DNA of 63,508 bases, counting the filler, from Reticulomyxa filosa (lineage: Eukaryota; Protista; Foraminifera): NCBI GenBank assembly GCA_000512085.1. It is 20 parts of 20 records of this genome, joined end to end, with 100 filler letters (N's around TTAATTAATTAA, not from the genome) between each part and the next. Parts side by side here need not be neighbours in the genome. Positions count along the whole stretch, not along the records: positions 16,286 to 24,199 come from ASPP01018931.1; 19 more parts are not named here. The stretch is one strand, 5' to 3'. Positions 15,811 to 55,455 of this stretch are shown here, in pieces. The notes under the pieces were generated by a model. It was given only the letters and a program-made list of their open reading frames with translations, had not been told where the DNA came from and searched no databases. Each line of letters begins with the position of its first letter. The first letter of the stretch is position 1. Made by a program: the position numbers and the translations under genes.

Positions 15811-16364
15811 ATTTAAATATGATAACATACTTATAATAATAGATTTGCATTGGACCCGATCAAATGCGAGCTTAAAGATGTTGTGGAAATATAAAGTAGA
15901 TTATCGTCAAGAAGCAAGCATTACACTATACTCGGCGACACAATACAACCGACATTGATGTATCATTATCACCACTTTATTTACTGGCGACAACACATTA
16001 AACATATTATTGTATATGCATAAAGATTTATTCGTCGTTTGGATGATACTTTTATGTACGTACATGAATATAATCTGTCCTCATTTCAAATTACCAATAA
16101 TACGCTCCCGACAGCATCCAGAACTGCTATTCAACATACAAGCATTCATGAAAGTGAAATCGTCTCAACAAAAAAAACATACACANNNNNNNNNNNNNNN
16201 NNNNNNNNNNNNNNNNNNNNNNNNNNNNNTTAATTAATTAANNNNNNNNNNNNNNNNNNNNNNNNNNNNNNNNNNNNNNNNNNNNAAAAAAAAAACATGA
16301 ACAGAGCAAAGGGAAAAAATACGTGTGTAAAAATTAACAAGAGAGAACTGAATAAATATCTCAC

Positions 16365-16440
16365 CTTCAAGGCTGTGACGAGGCAGATTTCTTTTTTTGT
16401 GTTGTTCCTGGCTTTTGCAACAATTTAAGCAAAATGCCAT
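16365..16440 (-). CDS. Probable first exon of an unknown gene (Cys-rich N-terminus)
   Basis: ATG...MAFCLNCCKSQEQHKKRNLPRHSLE is followed by a GTGAGA donor. The gene runs off the contig. Confidence 0.4.
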
Positions 16441-17665
16441 CTTTTCGAATTACACAAAATATTCCTGCTCCTTAAAAAACGAAAAGTGTACGTTTCTACA
16501 TTTGCTTTTTTGTATATAATCAGCACTACATGCGCTTTTATTCAATTTCATACTCTAGCAAGATCTTACATTCTAAAATGGATGTAATTGTCTTTTTTGT
16601 TACAACAATCGCATTTATTGTGCGAAACTTCTTTTCTTTTCAGACGCTGAATTTTTGTTTTTTACTCCAAAAAAGAATTTTCAAGTTCTATGTACAAAGG
16701 CCAGTTTGTATTATAATATCGAAAGTACAATATAAGAACTAGATATTTCGATAGGAAAGATGCATCAAATTCTCAACCAAACTTTTGACGAGTTTCACTT
16801 CAAGTCCAGTTTTCCAATTAAAGATTTTTTGTTTTCAAAAAAGTTAATAACATTATCTTTATCAATCAAGGCAAAGCAGCCTAATTCATATAATGATAGT
16901 GAGCTCATAATGTTTTTCTATTGGAAAAAACAAGCAATCTTTGAAGAAAATTTCACACTTTGTACGATATTTCATTGTGACAACAGAAAAAAATAACTAA
17001 CTTGTTAAGACAGTAGGTTTTTGAATAATTAAAGCTATTACATTCATTTAATTTTGCAATATATCATTTTTCACTTTGGATCTCTTTGGTCAAATTTGTC
17101 AAACAATTGTTCATTCTTACATTACATTATTTTCTTTTCTTAATAAATTGGATAACAATGAAAACTGCAACTAAGATTATTTGTTTTGTTGTTTCAACAA
17201 AGGAAAAAAGCTGCACTACATAAGAAAGTTAAGTAAGAGAAGCAGAATCATTGAACTACTTTGTTTTTCTGTGACAATTTAGTGTCTATTCTTTCAAAGC
17301 TTAAACACATTACAAGTAAAAAAAGAAAAAAAAATGGAACTAACCCCTTTTACGACCTTTGACCCGATATGATTTTTATTTGTTTAAGAAAGAAAGAAGT
17401 GAATAGAAAAACACAATTTTGAACAGATAGGGTAATTTTCAAACATGTTTTTAATTATAAATTCACTTGGAACAAAGTAAGAGAGGGAACAAGTTCTACC
17501 AAACCAAAAAAACTCTCTAAAATGTGTTGCAGTGTCTTTTTTCCTCTTGTATTGATATCTTGCGAAGGTCATCACTATTAAAACCTCTAAAACCTTTTCT
17601 TACTCTTAATGCCGTTAAAGCAAATATTGCAAGACAGTAACTGCTTACGTATCTCAAAAACAAAT

Positions 17666-17790
17666 TGTATTATCTGCTGATCCAGAACATATCACATTTG
17701 AACTACCACTAACTTCGTTACTACTCTTTACCATAAATGGTAATATTCAACAAACCATGCCATAATTTGTATGATCACAATATTGTCTTG
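17666..17790 (-). pseudogene. WD40 gene-family fragment
   Basis: Reads ...PFMVKSSNEVSGSSNVICSGSADNTI, homologous to SPFVIKNNDSSNVICSASRDNTI at ~46420-46490. Confidence 0.7.
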
Positions 17791-20268
17791 AACGAATTTT
17801 ATAACACGTGGCATAGAATAATTGATGTATAGAAATAAAAAAATATATATCTTTTTTAAATTCCTTTTCCATACCCTTTATGACTCTTAATTGTTATTCA
17901 TCTCTAAATTACACATAGAAAGCCAATGGACTAATTACAAAATGCAATTAAGTAACATTGAAGGACTCTTTGCAGCAAAATTGATAAATGTTTACCAGAT
18001 TATTGGAGAATGAAATATTTTTTCTTTTTAATTACAGAATGACCTCATTTTTGATTGAAACGCTGTTTAAAATAGTACTTACAAAAGTTATTATATCACA
18101 AAGTTTTTTTGTAAAGAATTTTAGTGTTTTGTTTTTCAAAAAGTATATTGAATTATGCCAAGTGTAGAGCATTTATGCTTTCCTCATTGGTTTAACAAAG
18201 GAAATGTAGAGTTGTCATTAGTACTTTAGTACTTTGTTCACAATTACAGAGTGTTATCAATATGCTCGTGAAAGAAATGCCCCTAAGGCTATAACCACAT
18301 GACACATTAATATGTTGTTGCTTGAAGCAGGCCCCTTTGGCGTCTTAAAATGTGTCACATAAATGTTATGATCATATTGTTTTTTTAAGTGCTTCTTTAG
18401 GATGTAGATGTTTTGATGATCTTTTGTTTTTCACTAATTGAACAAAGTTAGAAACATTATCAAAAATTTACGATAAACCAGCAAAAAAGGAAAGGGTTGA
18501 CCTCGTCATGACATTATATAATAAGGTGTTAATACTCACTTCAGTATGTTTATATTGTCTCAATAACGCTCCGCAAGATTAAATTGCAAACTACCTAAAT
18601 GGTATTCACTGCTTTCAATGCATACACAAACGATGCCATTCGGCTGGTCTTCAGTTGCTATTGTTTTTTTTAACTTTTATTTGCACGTCCAAAAAAGAAT
18701 ACTGTCAGTTTTAATTTACATTACAAGTTTTTACAGTACAGCAAAATTTCTATGTTTGAATGCTTTCATGCTTCGAAAAACAATATTTACAGTGTTGATT
18801 ATCGCTATGTTTTAAGCCACTTTCAGATATGCACACATATCAAAGTTACGAACCTATTCCTTTTGTAAATATTCATTTTTCCTGAGTTTCGATGTAAAAT
18901 TTTAGGGGTTTTCCTGTAACAGCTGCAAGTGTGTTGTGGATTGTACTTGTCAAACAGGGTTGTGTAGTGTTTTTTTTAAAAGGGGTCTGAACTTGAATAT
19001 TAACAACAGCAAGCTTTAGCGCTTGTTCTCCAGGCAATGGAGAAAGGTAAAAGACTTCTCACAATCGTTAATGAGCCACATTTCGCTTGTACACTTCATC
19101 CTTATCCGTCATAAGCACAATCAACGTAACTGATTATCAAAACTCAAAACTATCTATGTCTCTTCCTCTTCCCAACGTATGAAGTTAAGTGACGGACATT
19201 ATGTGCATTGGAAAAATAAGACTTATTCTCTTATTTAAAATATTTGGCTTGCACCAACTCCAATTTTTTGCACTCAAACATAGAAATTAGGCTCATTCGA
19301 CAAGTGAGAGCAGTAGTTTTTATAAAAATGCATCTCACAACTTTCACAAAGTTTTTTTTCACCTTTTCATTTAACATCCCTCATAGTATACGTTTTCAGT
19401 TTTCTTTTTTTTTTTTTAATAAAAAAAATTGTGATCTATCTTATCCCTCTCTTCTCTTGTCAAATCAATGGAAGGGGTAAAAAAATGCCCCTTTTTTTTT
19501 TTACAGAGTAAAAGTATACTGTCGATCGTGCACAAACACTTTTTTTTTTAACCAAGTATTTCCTTTCGAAAAAAAAAATCGCCAAACATCCGCTGCTTGT
19601 TTTTTTTGTCAAAAAGGAAACAATGTATAGCTAGCTATTGCAAAACATAAAAAAAAACATCATCACACCTTTTCTTTCCGATTTACCATGTACACCCGTT
19701 CTCTCCCCCTCCCCCCTCTTTTTTTCGTATTTTGTAGGACTGAACCTGTTTTTTTTTGAAATAACGCTTCTTGTCAAACTTTGCAGCATAAAGCCTTTAA
19801 GTCGGACGTCATCAGATTAGATTAGATTGGCTATCTATTGCTACAGTTAAGTCATTCTTTTTTTTTTTTTTTTTCCCGTTTTTCTGTCGCTTCTTAAAAA
19901 AAATAAAATTGCACAAATAACGACAATTCACAGGGAAAATCGTATTTGCGGAAAGTATATCTATTATGTCCGATGCAGTTATTAAAGAAAGTTAATGTAA
20001 CAAAACTAGTTTTTCACATTCAAAACAAAAAAAGCAACGTACATGTATAACGTTTCTTTTTTTTAATTTAAAACGAGAGATCGCAGCACCATGCATCTTT
20101 GTGTGTACGTGGGACAAAAAAAAAAAAACTGTGCATACGTAAATAATAAAGCAAGTATCCGTGGTCACCAAAGTATGATTGCGTGTATCCAAAGTGGAAT
20201 CAACAGTGGAGAAAGTTAAGCCAAGACAGAAATTTATCTTTCAAAAAAAAAAAAAAAAAAAAAAAAAA

Positions 20269-23200
20269 GGGAACTAAATACCAATAAAGTTGAAAAAGAA
20301 GAAGAAAAAGCACAAGTTGGAGAACTAAGCTCGGGAATCAATTTGCAAGGTTTATGTTCCAAACATGAATGTTTAGCTGCCAAAACACATTTGCCAGTGT
20401 GGGTTAATGTCGGCTTTAAGGAATCCCTTTTATTGAATGGTATGGATTGTGTGAACTTTCCTTTCTTTGTCCGAATTGCGGGAGCACTACGGTCAAATCC
20501 ATTAGCAGAGTGACATTCATTAACTCAGAATTTTCAATTCGTATAATCAATGGCAGCAACAGTGACAATAAAGATAATAAGTCTGTTATTCAAGATAATC
20601 GTCATCAATGTACATACTCCATCAAGTTTGGAGTCTCTTATGAATTACAAGCAACAAAAATTAAACAACATACAAAAGTATTGGGAGAATTGATATTGAA
20701 AAGTCAAAAAGCAATGGACAGCGATGAAATGAAAAACTTGGTTAAGACATTGAGACAATATCACATCATAGTGGTTCAACCAAAATTAAAAGGAGAGGAA
20801 AGATTAAATGAAAAGATAGAGCATGAGTATGCGAAAAATTGTGATGAAATGTTTGATATTGGAAGATTCACTATTCTATGTAAGAATAAACACCAATTAG
20901 AAACAGCTGTGACAGTACTGAAAAAAGCAAAAGATTTCGGAATGATTGTGTCCAAAGATAAAGATTGCTTTAATAAACAATCGGAAACGCATCATAGATT
21001 TCATAACATCACATTGTTTGTTCCAAAATACGATGTTTATATTGAAATGCAAGCAACATTAGAAAATTTCACAACATTAAAAGGTCATTCTATCATTGAA
21101 AATCCCGAGCTCAGTCATTTGTATTATGAAAACATAAGAACATGGAAAACAAATAATTCAGAAGATGATGATTTGAAACAAGCAAGTGATGAAACGCTAA
21201 CTAAAATTAATGATATTATTTGTGAATGGACAGAAGAAAGAAATATTACAAGAATAGCAGCTCGTTATCGAAAATATTTGAATGAAGGAATATTAGAACC
21301 ATTACAACTGAAAGGTAAAACAGAAGAAGACGTTAAAAATAGTATCCCATTGAAGATGGCTCAATTTACATATAGTCAACTTTGTCAATTCAAGCCACCA
21401 ACAACATTAAAAGGTAAAGCAGTTTTCATGGTATTGTATGATTATTATAAAAAATATATTATCGGTGAAGACAAACCAGTAAACTGTTCAGACATTGCAG
21501 CAATATTGCAAGATGCAAGAATTGAAGAAATAGAAAAAGAAGATATTGTCAGTTCACAGGCATTATTAACATATGTTCCTTTGCAAGCTAATTATGAGCA
21601 ATTTTCCGAACAAGAAAAAAAAGGTGGTGATGCATTTGATTGTCATAAACATGTCCTAGAATTTCTTGAAAAAAAAAGTGAAATAAAGCAAGTAATGATA
21701 ATTCAAGGAAAATCTGGATCTGGAAAAAGCTTATATGGTTGTTATTTAGAGGAATATTTGTGGGAGTGTTTTACTAACCAAAATGAAACTACACAACAAC
21801 AGATTATACCTGTATTTATTTCATTACCAAAATTCTATAATATGAACATTGATGAATCACAACTTATATATCAAATATTACAATCCAAATCAAAATATAT
21901 TCACAAAGATATCATTGACGCTGTTCGTCATAAACTCCAATTTGTCTTCATTTTAGATGGATTTGATGAAATATTTGATTTATATAACAAACACAATGAC
22001 AATTTCAACAAATATTTTTATGATCGTTTCAAATTAAATGAATGGAACGCAAAAGTGATTGTGATATGTCGAAGTAATGTATTGAGTGAAATGGATATCA
22101 AAAAGATGCTGGTTGGTAACAATAACAATACATCCAAAATATATTTGTGGCCATTTTCAACCAGACAAATAGATGATTACATTACGAAATTTGTAAACAT
22201 GCAACAAAATATAAGAGATAAAACCAAAGATAAGAAAGAAAATTGGACAGCAAATCAATATAAAGAAACATTAGATAAATATCCCAATTTTTATAAAATG
22301 ATACAAGAGCCATTTCTTCTTCGTTTGATATTGACAGTGTTACCATTATTAAGTAAAAAACATGATATTGGAGCCAATATATCAAAAGTTCAAGTATATG
22401 ACGTATTCTTACATCAATGGATTGACGAACATGTTCAAAATATATCCAAAAAATTGAATGAATTAAAAATAATTACAAACAAAGAAGAATTGAAATGTTC
22501 ATTTCAAACATATTGTGAAGATTTGGCCTTTGACATGTTTTTGCAAAATGAGCAAGTTGTAACAGATAATGAAATAATATTTGATAATTCAACGTTATTA
22601 TATTCAAATGTTAATTCAATTATTAACTTTGATATTTGTGATCATGATATGAAACAAGAAAAAAAATCAAATGAAGAAAACAAAGAGAATACAATTGAAA
22701 TGACACGAAAAAATGACAAAGGAGATGTATGGAAAAAGTATTTCAAGGCTGGTAATATTAATAAATTTGCATTAAGACGAATTGGTGCCAATCAATACAC
22801 ATTTTTGCATAAATCATGTCAAGAATATTATGCTGCACAAAAAATCTTATTTGATATCATTTTATGGGAACCTAATGTCGAAACACATGCCCAACTTCTT
22901 CTTATTAGTAAAAAATTGTTAAATGAGGAAATGGGAATTATTCAATTCATTGCAGATAGGATTTATGACAACAATTTGATGTTTGTAAATTTAAAATCAC
23001 GATTATTTCGACTAATTGAATTGTCAAAAGATAACTTAAAAGTGTCTACTGCAGCAGCAAATGCAGCAACAATACTCAACGTAGCAAGAATTAGCATGAG
23101 TTACCAAAACTGGGATAACATAAATATATCAAAAGCCATTCTAGATCACGCCTTCCTTGAAGGAACAAGTTTCAAAGATGCCATCTTAAATGGCGTGAGC

Positions 23201-24199
23201 TTTTATAATGCTTATCTCAATTATACCGATTTCACAAACGCATCAGTAAATCAGATTAATTTTGGTACATACGGCTATCTCAAGGGTCATTCAGATAATG
23301 TTAATTCTGTCCAATTTTCACCTGATGGCAACAGAATTGTATCTGGTTCAACGGATGGAACCATTCGATTGTGGGATGCATCATCTGGAAAACAACTTCA
23401 ATTATTAAAAGGCCATTTATCTTCTGTTTATTTTGTTCAATTTTCACCTGATGGTGACAAAATTGTATCTGGCTCAAGAGATACAACCATTCGATTGTGG
23501 GATGCATCATCTGGAAAACAAATTCAATCTTTAGAAGGTCATTCAGGTTCTGTTACTTCTGTTCAATTTTCACGTGATGGCAACAGAATTGTATCTGGCT
23601 CAGAAGATAAAACCATTCGGTTATGGGATGCATCATCTGGAAAACAAATTCAATTATTAGAAGGTCATTTATTTCCTGTTTATTCTGTTCAATTTTCACC
23701 TGATGGTAGCAGAATTGTATCTGGTTCATTGGATAGAATCATTCGATTGTGGGATGCATCGTCTGGAAAACAAATTCAATCTTTAAAAGGTCATTCAGAT
23801 TCTATTAACTCTGTTCAATTTTCACCTAATGGTGACAAAATTGTATCTGGTTCAGGAGATAAAACCATTCGATTGTGGGATGTATTATCTGGAAAACAAA
23901 TTCAATCTTTAAAAGGTCATTCAGATCATATTACTTCTGTTCAATTTTCAGATGATAACAGAATTGTATCTGGTTCATGGGATAAAACCATTCGATTGTG
24001 GGATGCATCATCTGGAAAACAAATTCAATCTTTAGAAGGTCATTCACATAAGGTTACTTCTGTTCAATTTTCACCTGATGGTAACAGAATTGCATCTAGT
24101 TCATTTGATAAAACTATTCGACTGTGGGATGTGTCATCAGGAAAACAAATTCAACCTTTAGAAGGTCATTCATTTCGTGTTAATTCTGTCCAATTTTCA
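20269..24199 (+). CDS. NLR-like STAND protein: C4 Zn domain - RelA/SpoT-like NTase - NACHT - pentapeptide repeats - WD40 array (3' truncated)
   Basis: The ORF from 20447 runs to the contig end. Motifs: LKGEERLNEKI...FDIGRFTI...HHRFHN...IEMQAT...SHLYYE; Walker A GKSGSGKS (~21708); Walker B FVFILDGFDE (~21941); FLHKSCQEYYAA; AILDHAFLEGTSFKDAILNGVSF; at least 7.3 WD40 repeats. The upstream GINLQGLC...C...LPVWVNVGF is in another frame (frameshift ~20430-20450). Confidence 0.9.
23285..24199 (+). repeat. 126-bp tandem WD40-coding repeats, highly similar units
   Basis: GH codons at 23285, 23411 and onward give a 126-nt period (one unit is 123 nt). The framework SVQFSPDGxxIVSGSxDxTIRLWDxSSGKQIQxL is nearly invariant. 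The contig breaks inside the array. Confidence 0.95.
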
Positions 24200-24358: not shown

Positions 24359-25337
24359 TATATACGTTCTGTATTTGACTGTTTAAATGACTCAGATTGT
24401 CTTATTAAATTAAATGATATCATATTTTCTTTCTCTATTTGTTTGACAGGAGATATTAAAACATCAATACTTTCCAAATTACTAGTTAATTCGATATTTT
24501 TTCTTTAATAAGTTTTTCTTGTTTTGTTGTTTTTATCATTAAATTCTTTTTTAATAGTTTCGATACTTGCTTGACATTTTTGTAGTTCTTCTTTGATTAA
24601 CTTATTCTCTGCAATACTATATCCCTTTTTCAATTTAATTTCTTGTTGCATAGACAGAATTGTTTTTTTCAATAAAATGGATTGTGATTTCATATCCAAA
24701 AATACCTTATGAACTAAATAAAAATGTAATTTCATGTTTGTAATCAAATGACATTCTGAATCTTGATCCAAGCAGGTATGATTACAACCAAAACGTTTAA
24801 ACCAACAATTAACTAAGATTCCAATCTTGTTAGAGCAGGATTGCTCAGTATTTACTTTCTTTTTTGCGTCTAATGTTATTACATTTTGGTTTTTCATCTC
24901 TTTTTTTGGATTGGCAATTGAAAAATTATTAATATAAAGGAATACATGTCGATCAAAAGTTGAAGTTGTTTGAATGATTTCTGCTCCTGATTCTTTACCT
25001 TTAACTAACCCAGTAATGGATTGTAGATTGTCAAATAATGGCTTGGACGACTTACTATTTTCGGACATAACTTTACAAAAAAATTCTGTAAAATAACTTC
25101 CTTTTTCTTTTGTAGGATCTGACAAATCAGTAATGTATTTACCAGGAGTTGTCGAATATATTAATAATGTATCTGATTCACGGTTATATGATTGTTGTTG
25201 ACACTCTTCTCGACATGCATTTTTTATGAAAATTTTTGGTTTGTTCAAAAACATATCTGTATCTTCTGTAAAAATTTCTTGCACTTTCTTAAGTAATTTA
25301 TATTTCTTATCGTCTGGTGTAACTAATGCATCTCCTT
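24359..25337 (-). CDS. Caspase-like (C14) domain C-half fused to TRAF-type Zn finger and coiled coil; partial, probably disrupted
   Basis: GDALVT...KPKIFIKNACR...DTLLIYSTTPG...GSYFTEFFC is the caspase p20/p10 pattern. It is followed by VNCWFKRFGCNHTC...ECHL....KLHF (TRAF-like finger) and a K/E-rich coil. There is a frameshift near 24510 and a MITE at the 3' side. Confidence 0.8.
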
Positions 25338-25437
25338 NNNNNNNNNNNNNNNNNNNNNNNNNNNNNNNNNNNNNNNNNNNNTTAATTAATTAANNNNNNN
25401 NNNNNNNNNNNNNNNNNNNNNNNNNNNNNNNNNNNNN

Positions 25438-41009: not shown

Positions 41010-44000
41010 CTTAAAATATTTATAGATATTTAATTGGGCAAGTGGAGATAGAAGTGTACGAGTAGTGTGGAAAATAGCTCTTTACTCAAGTACACGATAC
41101 GAAGGCTGCTTCTGGTCTGGATTCACTTGAAGCAGATTGGCACGGTGTTGTTCTATTGCCATTTATGGTACAGCGACAATGGCAATAGTAACAGTAGTAT
41201 CAATAATGGCGATTCAAGAAGGCGAATACTGTGGCAGTCACAAATCAAATTGTAAAAAGATCGAATTTTATTTGCCACGACAACATGCACATGTGCCCAC
41301 ATTTTCTCCATACAGATATTTGATATTTGTCCAACAATGAACAAATCAATGTCATTTGATAGCACGTATTAGGTGGAGATTCGATGTCGCTGTTTTTATT
41401 TGGATGAGTATACTTTTTTTAAAAGTAGAAATGTCCATAACAGATTGGAGGGAAACAAAAGTCAATTAGGTGTGTTTTTTTAACTGCCTCCATTTGTATT
41501 GCGAACCCAAGTTGTGATCAACACATTATGATATACAGATCTTCAAGTTGAAAATGAGGTGTCGATTGGCTAGCGCAAGTGAAGTTTAAAGATTGGAAAC
41601 TTGTTCAAGGTAGTGTGTTGTTCGTCTGAAATGTTTTCTTTTTTTGAAAGTGTAGTTTGGTTTTTTGTTGTGCAATTTGCACTAAACTGTTTTGTTTTTA
41701 ATTTTTTTAATTTCTTATTTGAAAAAAAAGGGGGCAACGCAAGCCTCGTCAGTATCTACAAAGATTTTCAACTCATTATAATTTTTTATCTTTTTACTGA
41801 AGGGTGTCTTTTTGCATTAAAAAAAGTGGCTACATTAACAAAATATAAATGAAATATCTTTATAAGTATCAAATTGTTTTACACTGAGAAAATGTCAGGA
41901 CGATAACCGAACTGACTTTGAAGCAAATATAACTTAATAAAAAAAAATATGTATCTTAATTCTATCAGATATTCAAGTGCTTGGATTTTATAAGTTGTAA
42001 CCACTGCAGAGCAAACAAAAATCTGACCAAAGGTGTGTCGCAATGACGACATGTTACACTTACAATACACAAAAATCATCAAAACAACACAGCGCAAGAA
42101 TATCATGCTCACAAAATCTATAAGAAGGAAAAAAATTAAAAAAAACAAAAAGCAGGGGAGCGGAGAAAAAAAACAAAAACTGAAGGCAAGTCAAAGGAGG
42201 GAGAAAAAGAAAAATAAGCAATTTTCGTCAAGTCGCCAAGACATTTTTTTGGCTACCTTGGGACTTTAGAATGCGATCTATGACTAGCAATTGTGCGCAC
42301 GATACTCCATCGGTATTGTCGGCGTTTTTTCTATTTCGATACGCATACACAAGTTTTGTTTTAATTGCAAGCTTTAATAAGCAAAAAAAAAAAAAGTGAC
42401 GCCCCACTCTTGATCTTTTGGAGTAAATAGAAGGAAAGAAAGAGTTTGAATATCCTGCGGATAATTTAACTTCAACAAAACCAGCAATAACTCTCGGCCA
42501 AATAACCTTTTTGTCGGTGTCGACCAAGGCTTCGACGGCATCTTCACTCCAAATCGTTAACGCCCGTTCCGCGACAGAGTGATGTTTAGACTTCATACAC
42601 GTGACTAGCTGGTCTATGACCGCCAATAAAATATCCCAATACGATTGCAAATCGAATCCGTTCTTGTGGTTGATCACGGCATTGATGATATTGACAACTT
42701 TCGCTATGGACATTTCCTCTTTGGTTGGTGATCGAACAGGCCAATACAAATTATATGTGATCAATCCAAAAAAAAAAAGTAATTAACTATTCGAGGTACA
42801 ATGAACATGGCGAATACGATCACTGATGGTCAATGTATTCCAGTGAGAGTGACAGAGATTCCTCGGTTGTGCTGGTGCCGTGCTGGCATCTACTTGACTG
42901 CGCAAAAAGTGTTGCAGTCACTTAATAGATCTGAAAATGTGATTAACTTCTTGGAAAAAACAAAGATTATGCGTTGGTTTTCAATGGACACAGGTATTGA
43001 ATTTTTTATTTTTTAATACAGTTGTAATATATATATACATATATGTATATGGACGTGTCAATTTTATTTTAGCGGCTCTTTTTTCTCTCTTGCAAAAAAA
43101 AAACATAAATGAATTAGCCTTGGTGCTGGTGTAAGCGTAGTTTTAGCAGAGTTTTTGAAGCATGGAAGTGAGAATGTGTTTCATTCCAGCTACAAAAATC
43201 GACCTTTTCGCGCGTTTGCATTTGCGCCACCACCGCTATTTGACGAACATTATTGTCGTCAGTTCTTATCTCAAAGTGAATCGTATTTATGTACATTTAT
43301 TTACAGTAAAGATATGGTACCAAGATTGAGTTGGTGAGGCGTAGTGAAAATCCGCGCAGCCATTCCAAGATTGTTGCAACAATGCAAACGCACGCAGTGG
43401 TGGGTATATCAAGCCTCCGTATTGGAAGATCGTACGACTATTTTAGATGCATTAGACTCAGATAGTGGATTCATTTGTGGTAAGGACAGAGACAATCGTG
43501 ATCGTGATTATGATGATGATGATGACGACAATGACATCGCTGTCGATATTGATAATGACACCGATCATATTAATCATAGTAATGATACTGAATTGCAAAA
43601 GAGTAATCAAATCCCGAAAAATATGCCTAACTCAGAGAGTGACCTGATATTTGAAAGTAGACATCACCAGGCACATTCCTCCATCACCGGATCCTCACTA
43701 GAGCAAATATTATTGTTAAGACAAAGGGAGAGGGATACGGACTTGCTCTGAACTTTTTTAATTCGTTACTCTCAATTTGTCGCTTTTTTTTTTATACTTT
43801 TTTTTTAAAAAAAAGGAGAGCAGCTGATCCTGGTTATGTTACATTTCGAAAAGAAATTCGCACAGCTTATAATAGCATTCGAAACAAAACAGTCAAACAA
43901 GGTCTTGTCAGCCCAGAATTGTGGCATGTCAAGACCTCCCATTTAGGCAAATTGTTTCCATATTTGTATCAAAGATATGAAAACAATGAACACAAAGGCG

Positions 44001-46215: not shown

Positions 46216-48776
46216 TCATTCACAAACACGAATGTGGCCTTTGTATGAGCCATAATATAGACTAGCACTGTAATTATCGTTTGATTTTTGTTCAATATTC
46301 TTTATTTTCTTTTTCAATGGCACAAATTTAAGACAACATATTCCGCCATCTTCATTTTCATTTCCTTTAATCACATGCAATTGATTTTTATTTGACCGAA
46401 TATCCCAAAAACGAATTGTATTATCTCTTGATGCAGAACATATCACATTTGAACTATCATTATTCTTTATTACAAATGGTGAATATTCAACAGCATATAC
46501 ATAGCTTGTATGTTCATTGAATACTTGAATTTGTTGGCAAGATCGAATATCCCACAAACGAACGCTTGCATCTTCTGATCCAGATAATATTGTATTTCCT
46601 AATTCATTTGATCTATATTTTACACTCCATATACAATCTTTGTGTCCTTTGAATACAATCAATGATTTGGCTGTTTCGACATCCCATATACGAATAGTAT
46701 TATCATTTGATCCAGAACAAATTGTATATCCATTACCACCAATCACGCCAATACTATTACTTTTATTATTATTGCTTTGTAGTGGTGAAAAATCAACACA
46801 CCGGACCCAATTTTCATGTGCATTGAAAATATTTACTGATTTGGATGTTTCAACATCCCATAGACGAACAGTCCAATCTCCAGATCCAGAACACAAATAT
46901 CGACCATTATTAAATGGCGAAAATTCAATGCCACAAACAGCACCAGTATGTCCATTAAATAAATTTAATTGTTGATTATGTTTAATATCCCAAAAGCGAA
47001 TTGTTTTGTCCGATGATGAAGAACAGATAATATTACAACAATGATTATAGTAATGATACGATGAAAATTTCACACAGTATACATAATCGGAATGTCCATT
47101 AAATGATCGAATTTGTTTGTTAGTGTTAATATCCCATACACGAACTGTATTATCATTTGACCCAGAGCAAATAAATTGTCTATCATTGAATGTTGAATAA
47201 TCAATACTCCAAATAATATTGGTATGTCCAGTGAGTGTATTGACTAATTTGGATGATGAACGAAACAAGTCAAAATTTGATAAAGATGACTGATTGGATT
47301 TGACTTGTAATAATGGATTATTGTATTCACTTGTTTTATCTTCATTATGATTAACATTTATTTGATTAATTTGATCTTTGCTTGATTTAGTTTCATTTTT
47401 CAATTGTTCAATTTCAGTTAGTAGGTTGTCCTAATCGATGTTATTTTATTTGTTTGTGTTGTAAACTGAAATACAAAAACAAAACCTACCAACTGTTGTT
47501 TTAAGATTATGTTGTCGTTATTTATTTTTGAAACCACTTCATTTTGTTTTTTTTCATTTAGTTGCCTTTCTGACTTTAAATGTTTGATATCATCCTATAT
47601 TTATTATTTTATTCTTATTACTATCATTGATTACATGATTTGGATTACTGGCTCAAGTGATAGTACACATATATTATACTGACAAATTTTTTAAAAAATG
47701 GCAAGTGTTTACATTTAGTTCCTCAATTTGTTTGTGTTGCGCATCGCTGTTTCTTTTCACAGGTCCTTCCAATTTGTTCGTGCAAATGTTACATTCACCT
47801 TGGCATTGTTCAAATTGCTTCTTGAATTGAATAATATTTTGGTCAATTTCTAATTTCAATTGTTGGATATTTTTTGTCAATTCGGCTATTTGTGCATCTT
47901 TTTTCACAGATTCACATTGTAAATCATCAATTTGTTTCTATTGCATTTTAACAATTCAAGGAGTAAGTAATCAATAAAAAAATCACAAAAAATATTCTAA
48001 AAATAGAAATGTGTACATTAAGTTGTTGAATTTGTTTGCTTTTTTTATTGTCACTTTCTTTCAGATTTTCAATTTCCTTTTTATTTTTTAAATGAGCTTC
48101 TTTTAATTCTTCCTTTTTTTTTTTTATGTTTGTGTATTTTTCCTTTGTTTTTATGATTTTATAATGATTACAATTCATAAATAAACGATGACGAAACCGT
48201 TTGTAATTTTTCCGTTTGCAATTGCGATTGCAATTCTTTGACCAATGAAATAATTTGCTCAATTGAAATTAATTGGCATGACTTGTCCAAATGATCTTTC
48301 ATTTCCTTTATTTTTCCTTTGTGATTGCATTTGCTTTTTGAAGTCCAATTGGTTTCGTCTTCGTATCCTTCTTTTTCTCCTGGTCTTATCCCTTCTTTCG
48401 ATTTTCTCTGTTCCAAATCATATTGTCGAGGACAGACTACTAATAAATCTGAAACTTGCTGTCTCGCTATTCTATTTTTTGAAAATTCGCAATTATCATG
48501 CTGTTGAATTGGGCATTTGCCATTGTTTTGCTTTAAATACGTTTGTAGACATTCTTCTCCGATCAAATATACTTGGTCTGCATTTTCGTGCTCATTGCAT
48601 TGTAATTCTACTGCGTTATTTGCAACTTGATTGCAAAGACAACATATTAATGGGTTTAAATTCTGTAGTCTGTTGGTCAAAAAAATCCAGTCTTTGTCAT
48701 AACAACCAGAACTGGAAAATATTTCTTTTTCATGTTTCAATTTTTTCCCATCCCTTTCCAAATTCAAGGCTAACAT
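46216..48776 (-). CDS. RING - TRAF-type Zn finger - coiled coil - WD40 protein (TRAF7-like architecture, putative E3 ligase)
   Basis: CCLCNQVANNAVELQCNEH...GEECL...CP (variant RING) is followed by CP...CNHKGKIKEMKDHLDKSC (TRAF finger). Several short coiled-coil exons lead to ~7 divergent WD40 repeats in 47403-46216. Confidence 0.85.
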
Positions 48777-49210: not shown

Positions 49211-49998
49211 ATGCGCACACTTCAAGTTGCGACCAATCATGTTGTTGGTGCAAATAAAGATGCTGAATCTTTGGCTACTGTTACAAATGAGAGAAGATCT
49301 CTAACTCAGTACTCGGTAACCTACTCTCTTTTTCTCTTTTTGTGTATTATTTATGATTAAAAATGAAAAAATTTGTTTTATTATTAGTTAAAAGAAGCAA
49401 TAAAGATTGTTATTAAAAATTGGTTAACAATTGTAGAAATAAAATTGGATGAATTGATGAATTTGATATATTGGTTACTAAATATGTTAAGTATAATTTA
49501 TAATTAATTATTTTAAATTATTAAATATTTTACAAGAACATACTGATAAAATAAATAGTGTAAGATTGTTTCAGCATCAGATGATATGACAATTTGAATA
49601 TGGAATTCTTCATCAGGAGAAGAAATTACATTCTCATTGGGTAAAAGTTACAGAATTTTCTCCTAATAAAAATATGATTATATATTACAAATCAAGAATT
49701 TATTGTTTCATGCTCACGTGATAATACAATTCAAATATGGAATGTATAATCTGGAGAATTACTTAAAATATTAAAAGGACATTTATCTGTTATTTATGAA
49801 GTACAATCTTTTTCAAATAATCAAATTATTATATCTTGTTCAACTGATAAAACAATTCGTTTATAGAATGTTAAAACGGGATATGAAATACAAAGATTAA
49901 ATTAACATTCTAGTACAGTAAGATGTGAGGATATTTCATTCAATGAAAGTACAATTGTATCAGGATCTGGAGATTGTGCAATTAGAATTTGGAGATAA
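49211..49998 (+). pseudogene. WD40-family pseudogene
   Basis: KIVSASDDMTI*IW, SCSRDNTIQIW, GHLSVIYEVQ, SCSTDKTIRL* and SGSGDCAIRIW occur with multiple stops and frameshifts. Confidence 0.85.
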
Positions 49999-50227
49999 AA
50001 TAATAATAATTCGAGTTTTACATTGACCGTTTTTCTTTGTTGGTGGGAGTATTCATTTTCAATTTTTTTAAACTCTTTTTATGTTTTTAGTGAAAACTTG
50101 TCACTCATGAATTGGAAGTTGAAAACAACCTTAAAAAGTTTATTTTTGAATTTTGAAGAAAATCATTATGCAAAAACAAGAAAATATGTTTTATTTTATT
50201 TGTTTATTTTAATTTTTTAAAAGATAT

Positions 50228-52064
50228 TTACACAGATATCCTTTGTTGGAAGAGGATGTCATAATCAGTTGTGTCCTGACTTTCTACACAATACCATTCA
50301 CCACTTTTATTGCTGCGAATATCCGTTCTGATATCTTGCAACATTTGCTTAAATGGATAACCAATCTTATATTGTGATGTGATAACTTTTTTAATGCTTT
50401 TGCTCAGCAATGACAAATCAGCTACTTGATGCCCCTTTGTGGTTGACCAAATACTCAGAAATCCATCGTCGTTATGTCCATATAATGTTTCATTTCCTCG
50501 TGTTGTAATTTCATGAGCTTTTGGAATACTTTCACCACGACAAGCATCAACTATAAAAATTTTTGGGAAATCTTTGAATGATTCCATTTCGTGACAATTA
50601 AATGATGAACGTATTCTATCAATGGATACATATTTTCCATCGCTTGTCACTAACATATTTCCATTATCTCCGTGTCCACAAATGATCACAATTAATCCAT
50701 CATATTTGTGAGGATTTTTATGAAGTTGATAATTTGTAACTAGTTCAAATAGAAATGATTGAACATCTTGTTTTGTCATATTCGAAGATAAATTACATAC
50801 AATTTCATAATTCAATTCTTGTTCAAATAATTGCTTAAAATTCGTAATGTCCTTTTCTTTTACATTCGGGAGATTACGCCACATTGTATTGTCCATATAT
50901 TCACTAATAGCAATCATTATTACCAATGCATTCTTAATTGTTTTTGTTTTTCCAATTATCGCTGGCCGTTGATACGGAGTCCAAAGAATTTTAAATGTAG
51001 GCTCATTACTTTCAAATTCTTTCTTCACTTTTTCATCTGATTCAATAATATTATCTTTTACATCACTCAATTCAAGTTTTAAATTTTCATTTCTCATTTT
51101 TTGAAAGTCCTTCCATTCCAAGCAATAATAACTTTGACAAACAAGTTCTTCAAATGTCAATCTTTTTACTTTTATCTCTTTTTTTCTTTCGTCTACGATC
51201 ACATATGCTGTCAACTATTTAATATATTGTAATTGTAACTTGAATCAAAAAAAGTAAAAGAAACATAATTAACTTTCTTTTCTATGCTATCTTGATTGCC
51301 CTATTCGTTCAATTACATAATGCATACATTTGATAAATTGTAATAAAATAATAAATAACGTAACAAAAGCAAGAAAAGCATCAATAGAAAAGCAAATAGA
51401 ATCAATATCATTTTCTGTGATTTCATTTTTCCATTTGCATTTATTCAATAACCATATCACAAACTGTTCATTTGACAATGCTTTAAACTTTTCAATTATA
51501 GTTGTTTTGTCTTCTTCGTTTTTTTGACTCCACCATTTTATCCATTCTTTATCTTTCTCCTGTTTTATTTATTTTTGCAATATTTGTTCAGTGCAAAAAA
51601 AAAGATAGAATATAGTCCTAACATTAATCTTTTTAGGTTTTGTCAATTCTTTATCTTTGCTTTGTTGATCTTTTTCTTGCGCTTGTTCTTCTGTTGTCCT
51701 AGTGTAGTAATCATCTTTTAAAAAAATATCGTAAATCAATGAAAAAAATAACATACACAATTTCTTCTTTATATTCATCAAATTTTACCGGTCGTCCGCA
51801 TACTTTGTGTTCTTTGTTTTTTCTATTTTATGTTTTTATATTAGTTGTTTGTCTTTGCTGACATTTTGAAGATCCAAAAATATAATCAAACCTTGCTGGC
51901 CACCATTTGTTGACTTCAGCAAATTTATATGGATAATTTCTTTGTTTGCAAAACGCAAGCATTTGCTTTGTGTCATAGGGATAGTGTCCAACATGTACTT
52001 TAAATTCTTGGCTGATGTCATCCAACGATTTTACATCGCTTTCCTCGCCGGATATGTCAGACAT
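50228..52064 (-). CDS. Caspase-like protease (peptidase C14) with helical N-terminal segments and a PB1-like domain
   Basis: Multi-exon gene starting at ATG 52064. The last exon has NALVIMI, the catalytic ICGHG (His codon ~50673), PKIFIVDACRG (~50540) and the p10-like DGFLSIWSTTKG. The preceding ~80 aa carry a beta-grasp/OPCA-like pattern (LTFEEL...LSDVKDNIIESDE.V). Confidence 0.88.
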
Positions 52065-53018
52065 AATTTTAAATATATCAAATGAAAAAAAAATACTTTT
52101 TTTCTACTCAAAAAAAAGGCTAAGAGGTACAAAACAAGCAACGTATTTAGTAATCTCAAAACGTTTATTTATACTAATATTTTTTAAATAAATATGTAAA
52201 TAAAGGTTGAGTATTAAGTAATTTAAAAGCTTCTACTAATTCCGTTTATTCAATTTTAGAAGTTGTGATGGTCCATGCTGATAACACTCGTTTTCGACTT
52301 TGTATCTCCTTTTCGAACTTTTTTTGAGTGGCTGTCCCATTTTTGTCCTGATCTTACTACGCACGAACAAAAATACGAGATTTTTTGCATTTATAATCAA
52401 TTTTTGAACTGCAAAAAGAAAAAACCACATAGAGAAGTATGACATTTGCGTCCAGACCAAGTAGTAAAAAAAGTTACGTAAATATTGACGGTTCATAGTA
52501 CAAAAAAAGTCTATGCATATATGTACATCTTGTGTGGGTGTACAAAAAGAAATCGATTTTTGATTTGTACATGTTCACAACAGGTATCCAAAGAATTCAA
52601 GGTATGTTAAAAATTTCCACCAGAGATTAACAAATAGAAACTTCTTTTTTTGTCGACATCTCTCGAAAGTGAAAAAAAAACAAATCCACATGATCATTTT
52701 TTGTAGGAAAGATATGCAATTACAACAAAGGAAACAAGATGAAATGGTTTGAGGTCGGTTTTATTTTTCATTTTTTTTTAATGAAAGATTTCATCTTTTT
52801 TTTTTGGGCATAACAAAAGATAATAATCAGTGATCATCCTTTGGAATTGATAAACGCAATGTGGTACCATGGAGGTGTTGTCGACAACGAAGATGTGAGA
52901 GTTTTTTCTCAAAATAAGAGTTATGAAGACAAAACAGTAAATATGCATATTATATATATGTATATATATGTATATATTTGTATGAACAAAGATTGCACAA
53001 CTATATTTAATAGATGAT

Positions 53019-55455
53019 GTGAAATGTAATGGAGGTATGCAAGACAAGAGCAATAGTAATTATACTGATACAAGTGGAAAAGATCGAAAATACGTAAAAG
53101 AAATAAGAGTATTAGTTAGTCTATTCGGAAATTCAATCAATGAAGAAGGATTACAACAGAAAATAGAATATCACAATGGAAATCTTGAATTGGTGATTAA
53201 AGATCTTGTTCAACAATCGATTGAAAATGAGGTATTAAAATAATATGAATAGCAGTGTCTTTCTATTTATCAATATTGATGTTTTATTCCTTTGTTACAA
53301 AAAAAAAAAAAAAAAGATAAATTAGAAGCAGAAAGCAAAATCAATGAATTGAAAGAAACAGAGCAGGTAATAACAAATTTACTTCCTTTATTTGTTTAAA
53401 TATTTCTTTTGTTTTTTGGGGAAATTGATAGAAACAAGTACAAGAAAACGCAGGAAATGAGGACAGTAGTAAGAGTATTCAAAAGGAAATGGAAAAAACA
53501 GAAATAGGAGAAACAAAGCCAGGAATTAATCTGCAAGGATATTGTAGCAATGGAACTTGTTTGGCATCAAAAGCCAAATTACCAGTATGGATAAATATTG
53601 GATTTGATAATATTACATTTATTTCGGACAAGGCATCATTTAGCTGTCCTGATTGTAAAAAATCAACTGCTAATGTAATTATTAAAGCCATGTTTTATAA
53701 CTCTGAACATTCCATTTGTGCAAGTGGTGATTTAATACCTGTAAAAGATAATAATTATCAATGTTCATATACAATCAAACCTGGGTTGTCTTATGAATTA
53801 AAAGCAAACAAAATAAGACAACATGCAAAGAGTATTGAAGATTTAAGAGAAAGGAGTGAATATGCAATGAATAGTATTGAAATAAACAATTTAGTAACAG
53901 AATTGCAAAAATACGAAATCACAGTTGTGAAACCACCTAGTTTAAAAGGAAATGAAAGATTATTGGAAAAGATTCAAGCAGATTATGGTGGTGATTTTAA
54001 TGAAGCATTTGATATTGGAAGATTCACCATTTTATGTGATAATCCAACTAAATTACAAACTGCAGTTGCAGTCATGAAGAAGGCTAGACAATTCAATTTG
54101 GTTGTGTCCGAAGATAAAGACTTCTTTGATAAACAATCAAAGACACATTATCGATTCCATAATATTAAATTGTATGTTTCAAAACATGATGTATATATTG
54201 AAATGCAAGCAACATTGAAAAATTTTACAACATTGGAAGGATACACTGTGATCGAAAATCCAAAATTTAGTCATTTATTTTATGAACATATTCGAGCATG
54301 GAAACCTAATAATCAAATTGAAGAAGAATTAAAACAAGCGAGTGATAAAACATTGACTAAAATCAATGATATAATTTGTGAATGGATTAATACAAAAGAA
54401 ATCCAAAAAATTGCAAATCGTTACAAGCCACATTCAGAAATTCGAATATTGAAACCTCCACAACTGAAAGGAATAAATGAAGAAGAAATTAATTCCAAAA
54501 ATGATATTTCATTAAAATTGATCAAATTTGTTTATGATCAACTTTGCAAATTCAATCCAAAGGAAATGAAAGGAAAAGCTATTTATGTTATTTTATTTGA
54601 ATATTTCAAAGGATACATTATTGGTGAAATGAATCCAGCGAGTTGTGCTGATGTTATATCACTATTAAAAGAATCAAGGAAACAAGAATTAGAAGAAGAT
54701 ACAACAATTTCACAAGCACTTGAAACATATATTCCATTACAGGCAAACAATTATCCATATACTGACGATGATAATAATAAAAAAAGTGATTCATATGATT
54801 GTCATCAATATATTATTGATTCATTAAGAGAAGAAAAAGAAGAAACAAAAAATGAACAACAACAAGTGATAATACTACAAGGAAAATCAGGAGCAGGTAA
54901 GAGTCTATTTTGTCGTCATTTAGAAGAGGCATTGTGGGAATTATATGCAAGTGGTTCTATAACATCCATTCCTGTTTATATTTCATTACCAAAATGTTAT
55001 AATGAAGTAAACGAAAAACAAATAATCTCTCAAGCACTACAAATGAAACAAATCAATAAAGAGATAATTGACGTTATTCGCGAGAATATTTCATTTGTGT
55101 TTATTTTAGATGGATTTGATGAAACATTTGACAAATATGATAAAAATAATAATAATGAAAGATATTTTTATGATCGGTTCAATTTAAATGAATGGAATGC
55201 AAAGATAATAGTAACCTGCCGAAGCCATGTGTTAAATGATGAAGATATTAAAAGCGTTTTAATTGGTTCAAAGAACATTACAACAACATCAATTATATAT
55301 TTGTGGCCTTTTTCAAAAGAACAAATGAATGGATATATTGATAAATTTGTAAAAATGAATAAAAAAAATAAAATGAATGATTATTTGAATTGGACAATAC
55401 AACAATATGAAACAACATTGAAAAATTATCCAAATTTAAATAAAATGATGGAAGA
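53019..55455 (+). CDS. NLR-like STAND protein paralogue 2: CUE/UBA-like - C4 Zn domain - RelA/SpoT-like NTase - NACHT (3' truncated)
   Basis: An exon EIRVLVSLFGNSINEEGLQQKIEYHNGNLELVIKDL and two short introns come first. Then GINLQGYC...CPDC, LKGNERLLEKIQADYGGDFNEAFDIGRFTI, HYRFHN, IEMQAT, SHLFYE, GKSGAGKS (~54881) and FVFILDGFDE (~55094). Collinear with the 20.3-24.2 kb gene. Confidence 0.9.

Follow-up and report, generated by a model that had tools for sequence, protein, structure and literature searches.

The window analysed here, a stretch of 63,508 nucleotides from the foraminiferan Reticulomyxa filosa (assembly GCA_000512085.1), consists of contigs joined with N spacers. One of these contigs (positions 16286–24199) carries the partial gene RFI_21722, whose terminal part is a tandem array of WD40 repeats (Table 1). 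The domain order of the gene was found to be Zn-finger-like, RelA/SpoT synthetase, NACHT, pentapeptide and WD40, an arrangement resembling that of NOD-like receptors (NLRs). As in NLR-like members of the signal transduction ATPases carrying numerous domains (STAND), a central NACHT domain with both Walker A and Walker B motifs is followed by C-terminal superstructure-forming repeats and preceded by an N-terminal domain, here the RelA/SpoT homologue (RSH) domain, to which its position would assign the effector role. The NACHT match of RFI_21722 itself (PF05729, E = 1.3e-5, 25.5 bits) fell slightly below the cut-off of 26.7, and PF05729 was found on most paralogues. Zn binding by the N-terminal domain is suggested by its cysteine pattern. 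The initial annotation of this DNA, made from the sequence alone, had likened the array to the HET-E/HNWD proteins of Podospora anserina. The NACHT and RelA/SpoT domains, together with PF05729 on the paralogues, bear out an NLR-type context, but identity with HNWD (HET-NACHT-WD40) was rejected: a Pfam scan extended to E = 10 detected RelA_SpoT but no HET, and the region folds as an RSH synthetase. PADLOC returned no match, and NCBIfam returned sub-threshold matches only. The open frame closed by the array comprises 1260 codons, all 3′ of a frame break that the public annotation spans by a gap in the protein. The break near 20455 is either a sequencing error or a real lesion; an error is plausible because the break adjoins a T run.

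Table 1. Features of the window (positions along the whole stretch).
Feature	Position	Strand	Evidence or remark
Whole gene RFI_21722 (partial)	20268..24199	+	Extent by homology; 5′ end uncertain, 3′ end missing
Cys-rich, Zn-finger-like N-terminal domain, common to the family	20334..20656	+	No Pfam match
One-base frame break relative to paralogues, inside the Cys-rich domain, adjoining a short T run	20450..20465		tblastn frames 3 then 2; three-frame translation
RelA/SpoT (RSH) synthetase domain, Tas1/Apk1-like sequence group	20657..21259	+	Pfam, fold and profile searches
NACHT NTPase core	21692..22192	+	Walker A 21707–21730, Walker B 21953–21970
Pentapeptide repeats	23138..23263	+	Pfam PF00805, E = 1.1e-8; across the family they form one travelling module together with the WD40 repeats
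Homogenised WD40 array, 7 full units + 12 codons	23285..24199	+	Tandem repeat search (TRF); structural model at pLDDT 92.9, which matched beta-propellers
Hypervariable unit codons 4, 5, 7 (d-a loop, R1-2, R1), unit 1 as example	23294..23305	+	Same offsets in every unit
Unit codons 23–25 in the b-c turn (23, at D-1, hypervariable; 25 weakly variable), unit 1 as example	23351..23359	+	
Second family member RFI_06002 (P0047)	53001..55455	+	Another contig; contig end precedes its repeats
Peptidase_C14 (caspase-fold) open reading frame	24505..25338	-	E = 4.9e-11
Peptidase_C14 (caspase-fold) open reading frame	50228..51214	-	E = 2.3e-19
Degenerate WD40 stretch, likely pseudogene	49562..50115	+	Stops and frame changes
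PP2A regulatory B56 fragment	42228..42782	-	E = 5.1e-11

TRF delimited the array with a period of 126, 7.3 copies and a score of 1240. Its units start at 23285, 23411, 23537, 23663, 23789, 23915, 24038 and 24164; unit 6 measures 123 bp, and unit 8 is ended after its 12 codons by the contig end (N run from 24200). About half of the array appears to be missing, since full-length paralogues mostly hold 14–16 WD40 units, corresponding to two propellers. A search with the array alone for the missing 3′ part or an allele yielded just 14 unrelated WD40 proteins at 34–51% identity. The description of the 126-bp units as nearly identical proved to be overstated: pairwise DNA identity was 80–89%, rising to 86–94% with the five variable codons removed, and amino-acid identity averaged 0.75 over the 7 units (range 0.69–0.85). 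This mean, which is our own pairwise value and not the exact procedure of PMC5587647, exceeds the internal identity of at least 0.7 given there for highly repetitive WD40 proteins; the best self-identity over 100 residues (0.81) falls short of the >85% over 100 residues in PMC4986451. (Papers are cited by PMC number.) An artefact of collapsed repeats was rejected, no two units of the array being identical. Variation was concentrated in codons 4, 5, 7 and 23 with 5, 6, 3 and 7 different residues, respectively, while codon 25, the second x of x-D-x, showed 4 residues with K in 4/7 units, and none of the codon models described below singled it out. All eight residue sets after GH(S/L) and all seven x-D-x pairs listed in the initial annotation matched our reading of the sequence, except that unit 7 has SSS, not SGS. 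Its description of the WD40 repeats at 46216–47403 as divergent was likewise confirmed by a mean identity of 0.43 among the 5 full units of the gene at 46216–47430.

In the structural model of the array, with a predicted local distance difference test (pLDDT) of 92.9, unit positions 6–11, 17–22, 26–31 and 37–42 form strands a–d, which places codons 4–5 in the d-a loop, codon 7 where strand a begins, and codons 23–25 in the b-c turn. According to PMC3419727, positions R1-2, R1 and D-1 are the usual top-face binding residues of WD40 domains, and by its rules these are unit positions 5, 7 and 23. The claimed top-face location of the variable positions thus agrees with both the model and the published rules. 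The selected Podospora codons 7, 9, 25 and 27, which flank the conserved codons 8 and 26 (PMC1805685), would correspond to array codons 5, 7, 23 and 25, as judged from the 18-codon spacing shared with V6 and D24. Furthermore, seven positions named in PMC12222747 map to unit positions 3, 4, 5, 7, 23, 25 and 32.

A codon-based comparison of dN and dS, proposed in the initial annotation for all repeat units in the genome, was run on the units of this array and favoured positive selection on the four top-face codons 4, 5, 7 and 23. By the Nei–Gojobori method, the proportion of nonsynonymous differences (pN) was 0.57 at codons 4, 5, 7, 23 and 25 and 0.077 elsewhere, with a synonymous proportion (pS) of 0.157 overall. 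Codon models, implemented in our own code, were fitted on a star tree and on a maximum-likelihood (ML) tree of the array units. For M1a versus M2a the likelihood ratio (LR) came to 45.8 with the star topology and to 35.7 with the ML topology. M7 versus M8 and M8a versus M8 gave similar values, the latter (LR 35–45) rejecting models limited to omega = 1. Sites 4, 5, 7 and 23 were flagged on the star tree and sites 5 and 23 on the ML tree, whereas the omega estimates of 35–47 are unreliable as numbers. None of the null simulations reached the observed 44.7 (0/50 star, 0/99 mosaic, 0/149 in all), their maximum being 20.8. The third positions of codons 4, 5 and 7 stay T in 19/21 cases while their first and second positions vary. 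Fourfold-degenerate sites differed at 51/311 positions (0.16) between array units and at 36/71 (0.51) between the two paralogues in the window, where saturation lies at 0.58. Since such sites are near saturation between the window paralogues, the low dS within the array indicates recent common ancestry of the units rather than a ceiling set by codon bias. The array therefore displays the diversifying selection on top-face codons that characterises HNWD-type proteins.

A search whose query was the 420-residue stretch following the Met at 20711 retrieved 79 proteins, 70 of them named Reticulomyxa filosa and headed by RFI_21722 at 100%; the 70 include RFI_21722 and the second copy in the window (RFI_06002), and many are partial. 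Across 612 full units from 49 genes, entropy was highest at unit positions 5, 23, 7 and 4, in this order. The homogenised framework claimed for the array was borne out, and family-wide it was found in 7/47 genes with at least five units, by a threshold of our own. These homogenised arrays contain 84 distinct five-site combinations in 87 units. In non-homogenised paralogues, units at the same position were more alike than units at different positions (0.65–0.69 versus 0.57–0.58), a positional signal that was absent in homogenised pairs (0.73 versus 0.70). The units of RFI_21722 resemble those of P0027 (0.81) nearly as much as each other (0.83), at 55% identity between the NACHT regions of the two genes, and two NACHT relatives of P0027 (72–73% identical) have units at 0.60–0.61. 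The identity switch point lies directly upstream of the pentapeptide repeats. Four of 48 genes, drawn from two NACHT clades, carry an Asn-Arg signature. In a tree of the linker, the seven homogenised genes and the intermediate P0044 and P0019, which were added after the identity matrix and the tails had been seen, form one group (1 change, support 83); in the tree of the NACHT core the same nine genes are scattered (8 changes). Both trees comprise 45 of the 47 genes, two without Walker A having been left out. An approximately unbiased (AU) test on 20 of the 45 rows rejected grouping of these genes in the NACHT core (p = 1.5e-6). The conflict between the two trees, together with the AU test, shows that sensor modules were recombined onto different NACHT backgrounds, and the recombination between loci postulated earlier is thus upheld at the level of NACHT and sensor modules. 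In seven independent pairs of non-homogenised paralogues, units at the same position shared 63–71% identity in the framework and 4–21% at the four hot spots. The hot spots thus diverge in non-homogenised arrays as well, so that diversity does not arise from repeat exchange alone.

The synthetase domain had gone unnoticed in the initial annotation. Its Pfam RelA_SpoT match in RFI_21722 (E = 3.7e-4) was below the cut-off, but in a structural search with its model (pLDDT 81.6) ranks 1–11 were all RSH enzymes with Z scores from 13.7 to 8.2, and Foldseek also gave RSH synthetases. The domain thus has the SYNTH fold, its best structural match giving Z 13.7 with a root-mean-square deviation of 3.7 over 158 residues. 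A search of 1.84 billion representatives gave 80 matches, 43 at E up to 1e-10 followed by a tail of distant proteins, of which Triparma and Guillardia were named. Among 27 distant matches scanned, 11 carry RelA_SpoT, and others carry extracellular contractile injection system (eCIS) core, TPR, or ankyrin and NACHT domains. Eleven short distant matches, picked by hand, match the RSH domain at 99.1% probability and match Tas1 with E = 1.6e-25, compared with 4.3e-8 for the next synthetase. This two-step link places the domain closest, by sequence, to the Tas1/Apk1 toxin group. Most catalytic residues are kept in RFI_21722 (K 20789, R 20801, K 20813, D 20855 and R 20864, and further K 20960, N 21005, E 21044, Q 21050 and H 21116), so that the basic residues of the ATP site, the catalytic Asp and the Glu-x-Gln are all present. 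Active-site residues are retained in 94–100% of the paralogues covering each column, for instance K45 in 61/61, R49 in 58/59, K53 in 59/59, D67 in 61/61, R70 in 61/61, E130 in 63/63 and Q132 in 65/65.

The module was also seen elsewhere. P0087, a Reticulomyxa protein named 'vcbs repeat-containing', has the same RSH domain, which is thus also found in another architecture, and in P0004 (RFI_08856) the Cys-rich and RSH module is tandemly duplicated in front of NACHT. Other, probably eukaryotic proteins (P0145, P0122, P0156, P0129) join a Tas1-like RSH domain to ankyrin and NACHT or to TPR, and a Tas1-like effector may recur in other protist sensors. A metagenome scan reduced 151 pattern matches to a single locus (L001, 203–1006 of its contig), which encodes a Cys-rich domain and an RSH-like domain of 35% identity without the D..R motif, a relative outside the R. 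filosa assembly that is perhaps inactive.

The closest parallel is provided by the HNWD/NWD proteins of Podospora anserina (het-d, het-e, het-r), which share NACHT and 42-codon WD40 units with a homogenised framework (PMC1805685); two propellers (PMC12222747) and exchange between loci, in Reticulomyxa at the level of modules, are also common to both. In contrast, Reticulomyxa has an RSH synthetase in place of HET, a pentapeptide linker and about 70 genes versus 10, with just 7/47 arrays homogenised; the identity within the present array is lower (0.75 at the amino-acid level), codon 25 is weak and codon 4 is strong. The repeat mechanism has been published for Podospora (PMC1805685) and for fungi at large (PMC4986451), and protists are known to have highly repetitive WD40 proteins (PMC5587647). 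Among the 12 N-terminal classes of fungal NLRs is RelA_SpoT, with RELA_SPOT-NACHT-WD40 rows listed in PMC4986451; PMC9815663 also lists this architecture for fungi. The domain order of these proteins is the same as in the Reticulomyxa family, but in fungi they are rare and interpreted as serving ppGpp synthesis (PMC4986451), whereas in Reticulomyxa the domain is the standard predicted effector of the whole family. Since no fungal protein was among the named matches of the RSH domain, the Reticulomyxa RSH–NACHT fusion is likely independent of the fungal one. The domain has the RSH fold, the D..R spacing and an Asn for the usual His in common with the group formed by Tas1/Apk1-like enzymes (PDB 6ox6) and further small alarmone synthetases (SAS); residues probably equivalent to R330, N370, E382 and Q384 of Apk1 (PMC12691689) are present. 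The Reticulomyxa domain differs from them in being eukaryotic, NACHT-fused and not secreted, in having mostly His at the G-loop Tyr, and in a structural identity of about 17%. NACHT-pentapeptide-WD40 proteins of Mortierellaceae fungi and endosymbionts (Linnemannia elongata, Glomeribacter sp.) have the same Pfam set and gave weak matches at the start of the NACHT region, but these cover 27–37% of the 420-residue query, and the RSH domain is not in their Pfam lists. High-conservation NLRs have been found across domains of life (PMC13449251). The literature searched, outside which most subscription journals lie, yielded no paper on the Reticulomyxa NACHT family or on a eukaryotic RelA-NACHT-ppApp system, and no experimentally tested RSH domain on an NLR. 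The mechanism is thus known from fungi; new are the lineage and the toxin-type effector on an expanded family.

Taken together, we propose that the array is the selected, predicted ligand-binding end of an NLR-like gene from a family of about 70, whose RSH domain is likely activated by the ligand and would pyrophosphorylate nucleotides as a defence (probability roughly 0.62). Point substitutions at the hot spots would be favoured because they alter what is bound, and gene conversion or recent re-duplication may keep the framework alike in one sub-lineage. Ligand-triggered oligomerisation is established for other STAND proteins; by analogy, a foreign protein bound between the two propellers would cause the NACHT domains to oligomerise and thereby switch on the synthetase, giving a nucleotide pyrophosphokinase output. 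The product would most likely be an intracellular non-self receptor that combines a double propeller bearing a selected face, a NACHT switch and this output. A bolder version, which we consider speculative and rather unlikely in its entirety, has dozens of diversifying, recombining WD40 sensors trigger a toxin-type (p)ppApp synthetase, so that ATP would be drained and the infected part of the giant multinucleate foraminiferan cell killed or silenced.

Several observations weigh against this proposal. The selection test drew on just 8 units of DNA and on a model without multi-nucleotide mutation, and 19/99 mosaic null runs exceeded the nominal cut-off, i.e. recombination inflates the test. The grouping in the linker tree is moderately supported (83 and 94, FastTree). 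Within the array, 21/45 informative site pairs were incompatible, and clustering tests for mosaicism were not significant (p = 0.08–0.93). The claim that exchange of single repeats creates the repertoire was thus not substantiated: exchange of modules between loci is supported, but within-array clustering is not, and the hot spots diverged without homogenisation. With regard to the effector, structure ties Tas1 with (p)ppGpp-synthesising SAS and CapRel (Z 12.3 versus 13.7–11.8); direct matches to Tas1 were weak (E = 0.15–0.32), although profiles of Reticulomyxa sequences only rank it first, and were absent with the RFI_21722 copy alone as query. The G-loop Tyr of RSH synthetases stacks the acceptor base; its position (20993) is His in RFI_21722 and in 53/63 paralogues, and Tyr in 8. 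The frame break lies upstream of the synthetase, and this copy may be a pseudogene. Binding and activity of the RFI_21722 product are, moreover, predictions from sequence and models. Finally, (p)ppApp is the product of Tas1 and Apk2, which thereby drain ATP (PMC10083569), while some Apk1 homologues make (p)ppGpp (PMC12691689), and either may be the product here. We tentatively place (p)ppApp, with ATP being depleted and death or dormancy ensuing locally, ahead of each other outcome, though short of even odds; (p)ppGpp is a weaker candidate, an inactive domain somewhat weaker again, and tRNA or another acceptor the least probable.

Among alternative explanations, conspecific allorecognition of the kind mediated by HET-D and HET-E would have the family police fusion between the cell networks of different individuals rather than microbes. 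Reticulomyxa is a multinucleate, network-forming cell, and both the sites and the evolutionary pattern are shared with Podospora HNWD; the number of paralogues, about 70, and the divergence of the hot spots between close pairs nevertheless better suit a broad pathogen repertoire, which makes this role improbable. Marginally less probable still is that the sensor evolves as described above while the RSH domain is non-catalytic or serves signalling only, or that RFI_21722 is a dead copy within a live family. Such a state would account for the His replacing the G-loop Tyr, for the frame break and for the missing D..R motif of L001, but the other catalytic residues vary hardly or not at all in about 60 paralogues, and the break, which adjoins a T run, is followed by 1260 open codons.

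It could further be argued that the array is a recent neutral tandem duplication whose variable positions are surface sites free of constraint, like those of WD40 proteins in general, given that R1-2, R1 and D-1 are hot spots throughout this class of proteins (PMC3419727) and that highly repetitive WD40 proteins of bacteria, fungi and protists have been interpreted as young duplications (PMC5587647). The rejection of models limited to omega = 1, by M8a versus M8 and by the null simulations, and the variation of codons 4, 5 and 7 at first and second positions around a nearly constant third T render this explanation quite unlikely. The NNY pattern of these three codons would also be expected if adenine-targeted hypermutation of the diversity-generating retroelement type wrote them; however, synonymous third-position A deviates in 2/94 cells, less than T (7/114), and no template repeat was found in the window, so that this last candidate was rejected as having a negligible chance of being correct. 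The selected, NLR-like sensor coupled to a synthetase remains our preferred interpretation.

Some other features of the window were noted. In RFI_06002, an upstream exon has a Gly-Gly-Met junction, present in 21/70 paralogues, and then a short helical unit which on visual inspection resembles UBA/CUE and had no Pfam match. Atlas linked the Cys-rich domain weakly (0.79) to ubiquitin-fused proteins, and loss of an upstream ubiquitin-like exon is possible. The caspase-fold reading frame at 50228–51214 lies about 1.8 kb from RFI_06002, divergently oriented on the same contig.

To our knowledge, little is known about how Rhizaria distinguish self from non-self. The present family offers a concrete set of rhizarian receptors in which individual codons bear evidence of an arms race, and it extends the fungal HNWD pattern to a distant lineage. 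As it holds both homogenised and position-conserved arrays, it separates concerted evolution from point selection, and its RSH domain, small and undamaged in dozens of copies, lends itself to direct assay. If (p)ppApp is indeed made, an antibacterial toxin chemistry would have been turned into a eukaryotic immune effector, and the proposed activity, if true, would represent alarmone-based immune execution in a eukaryote.
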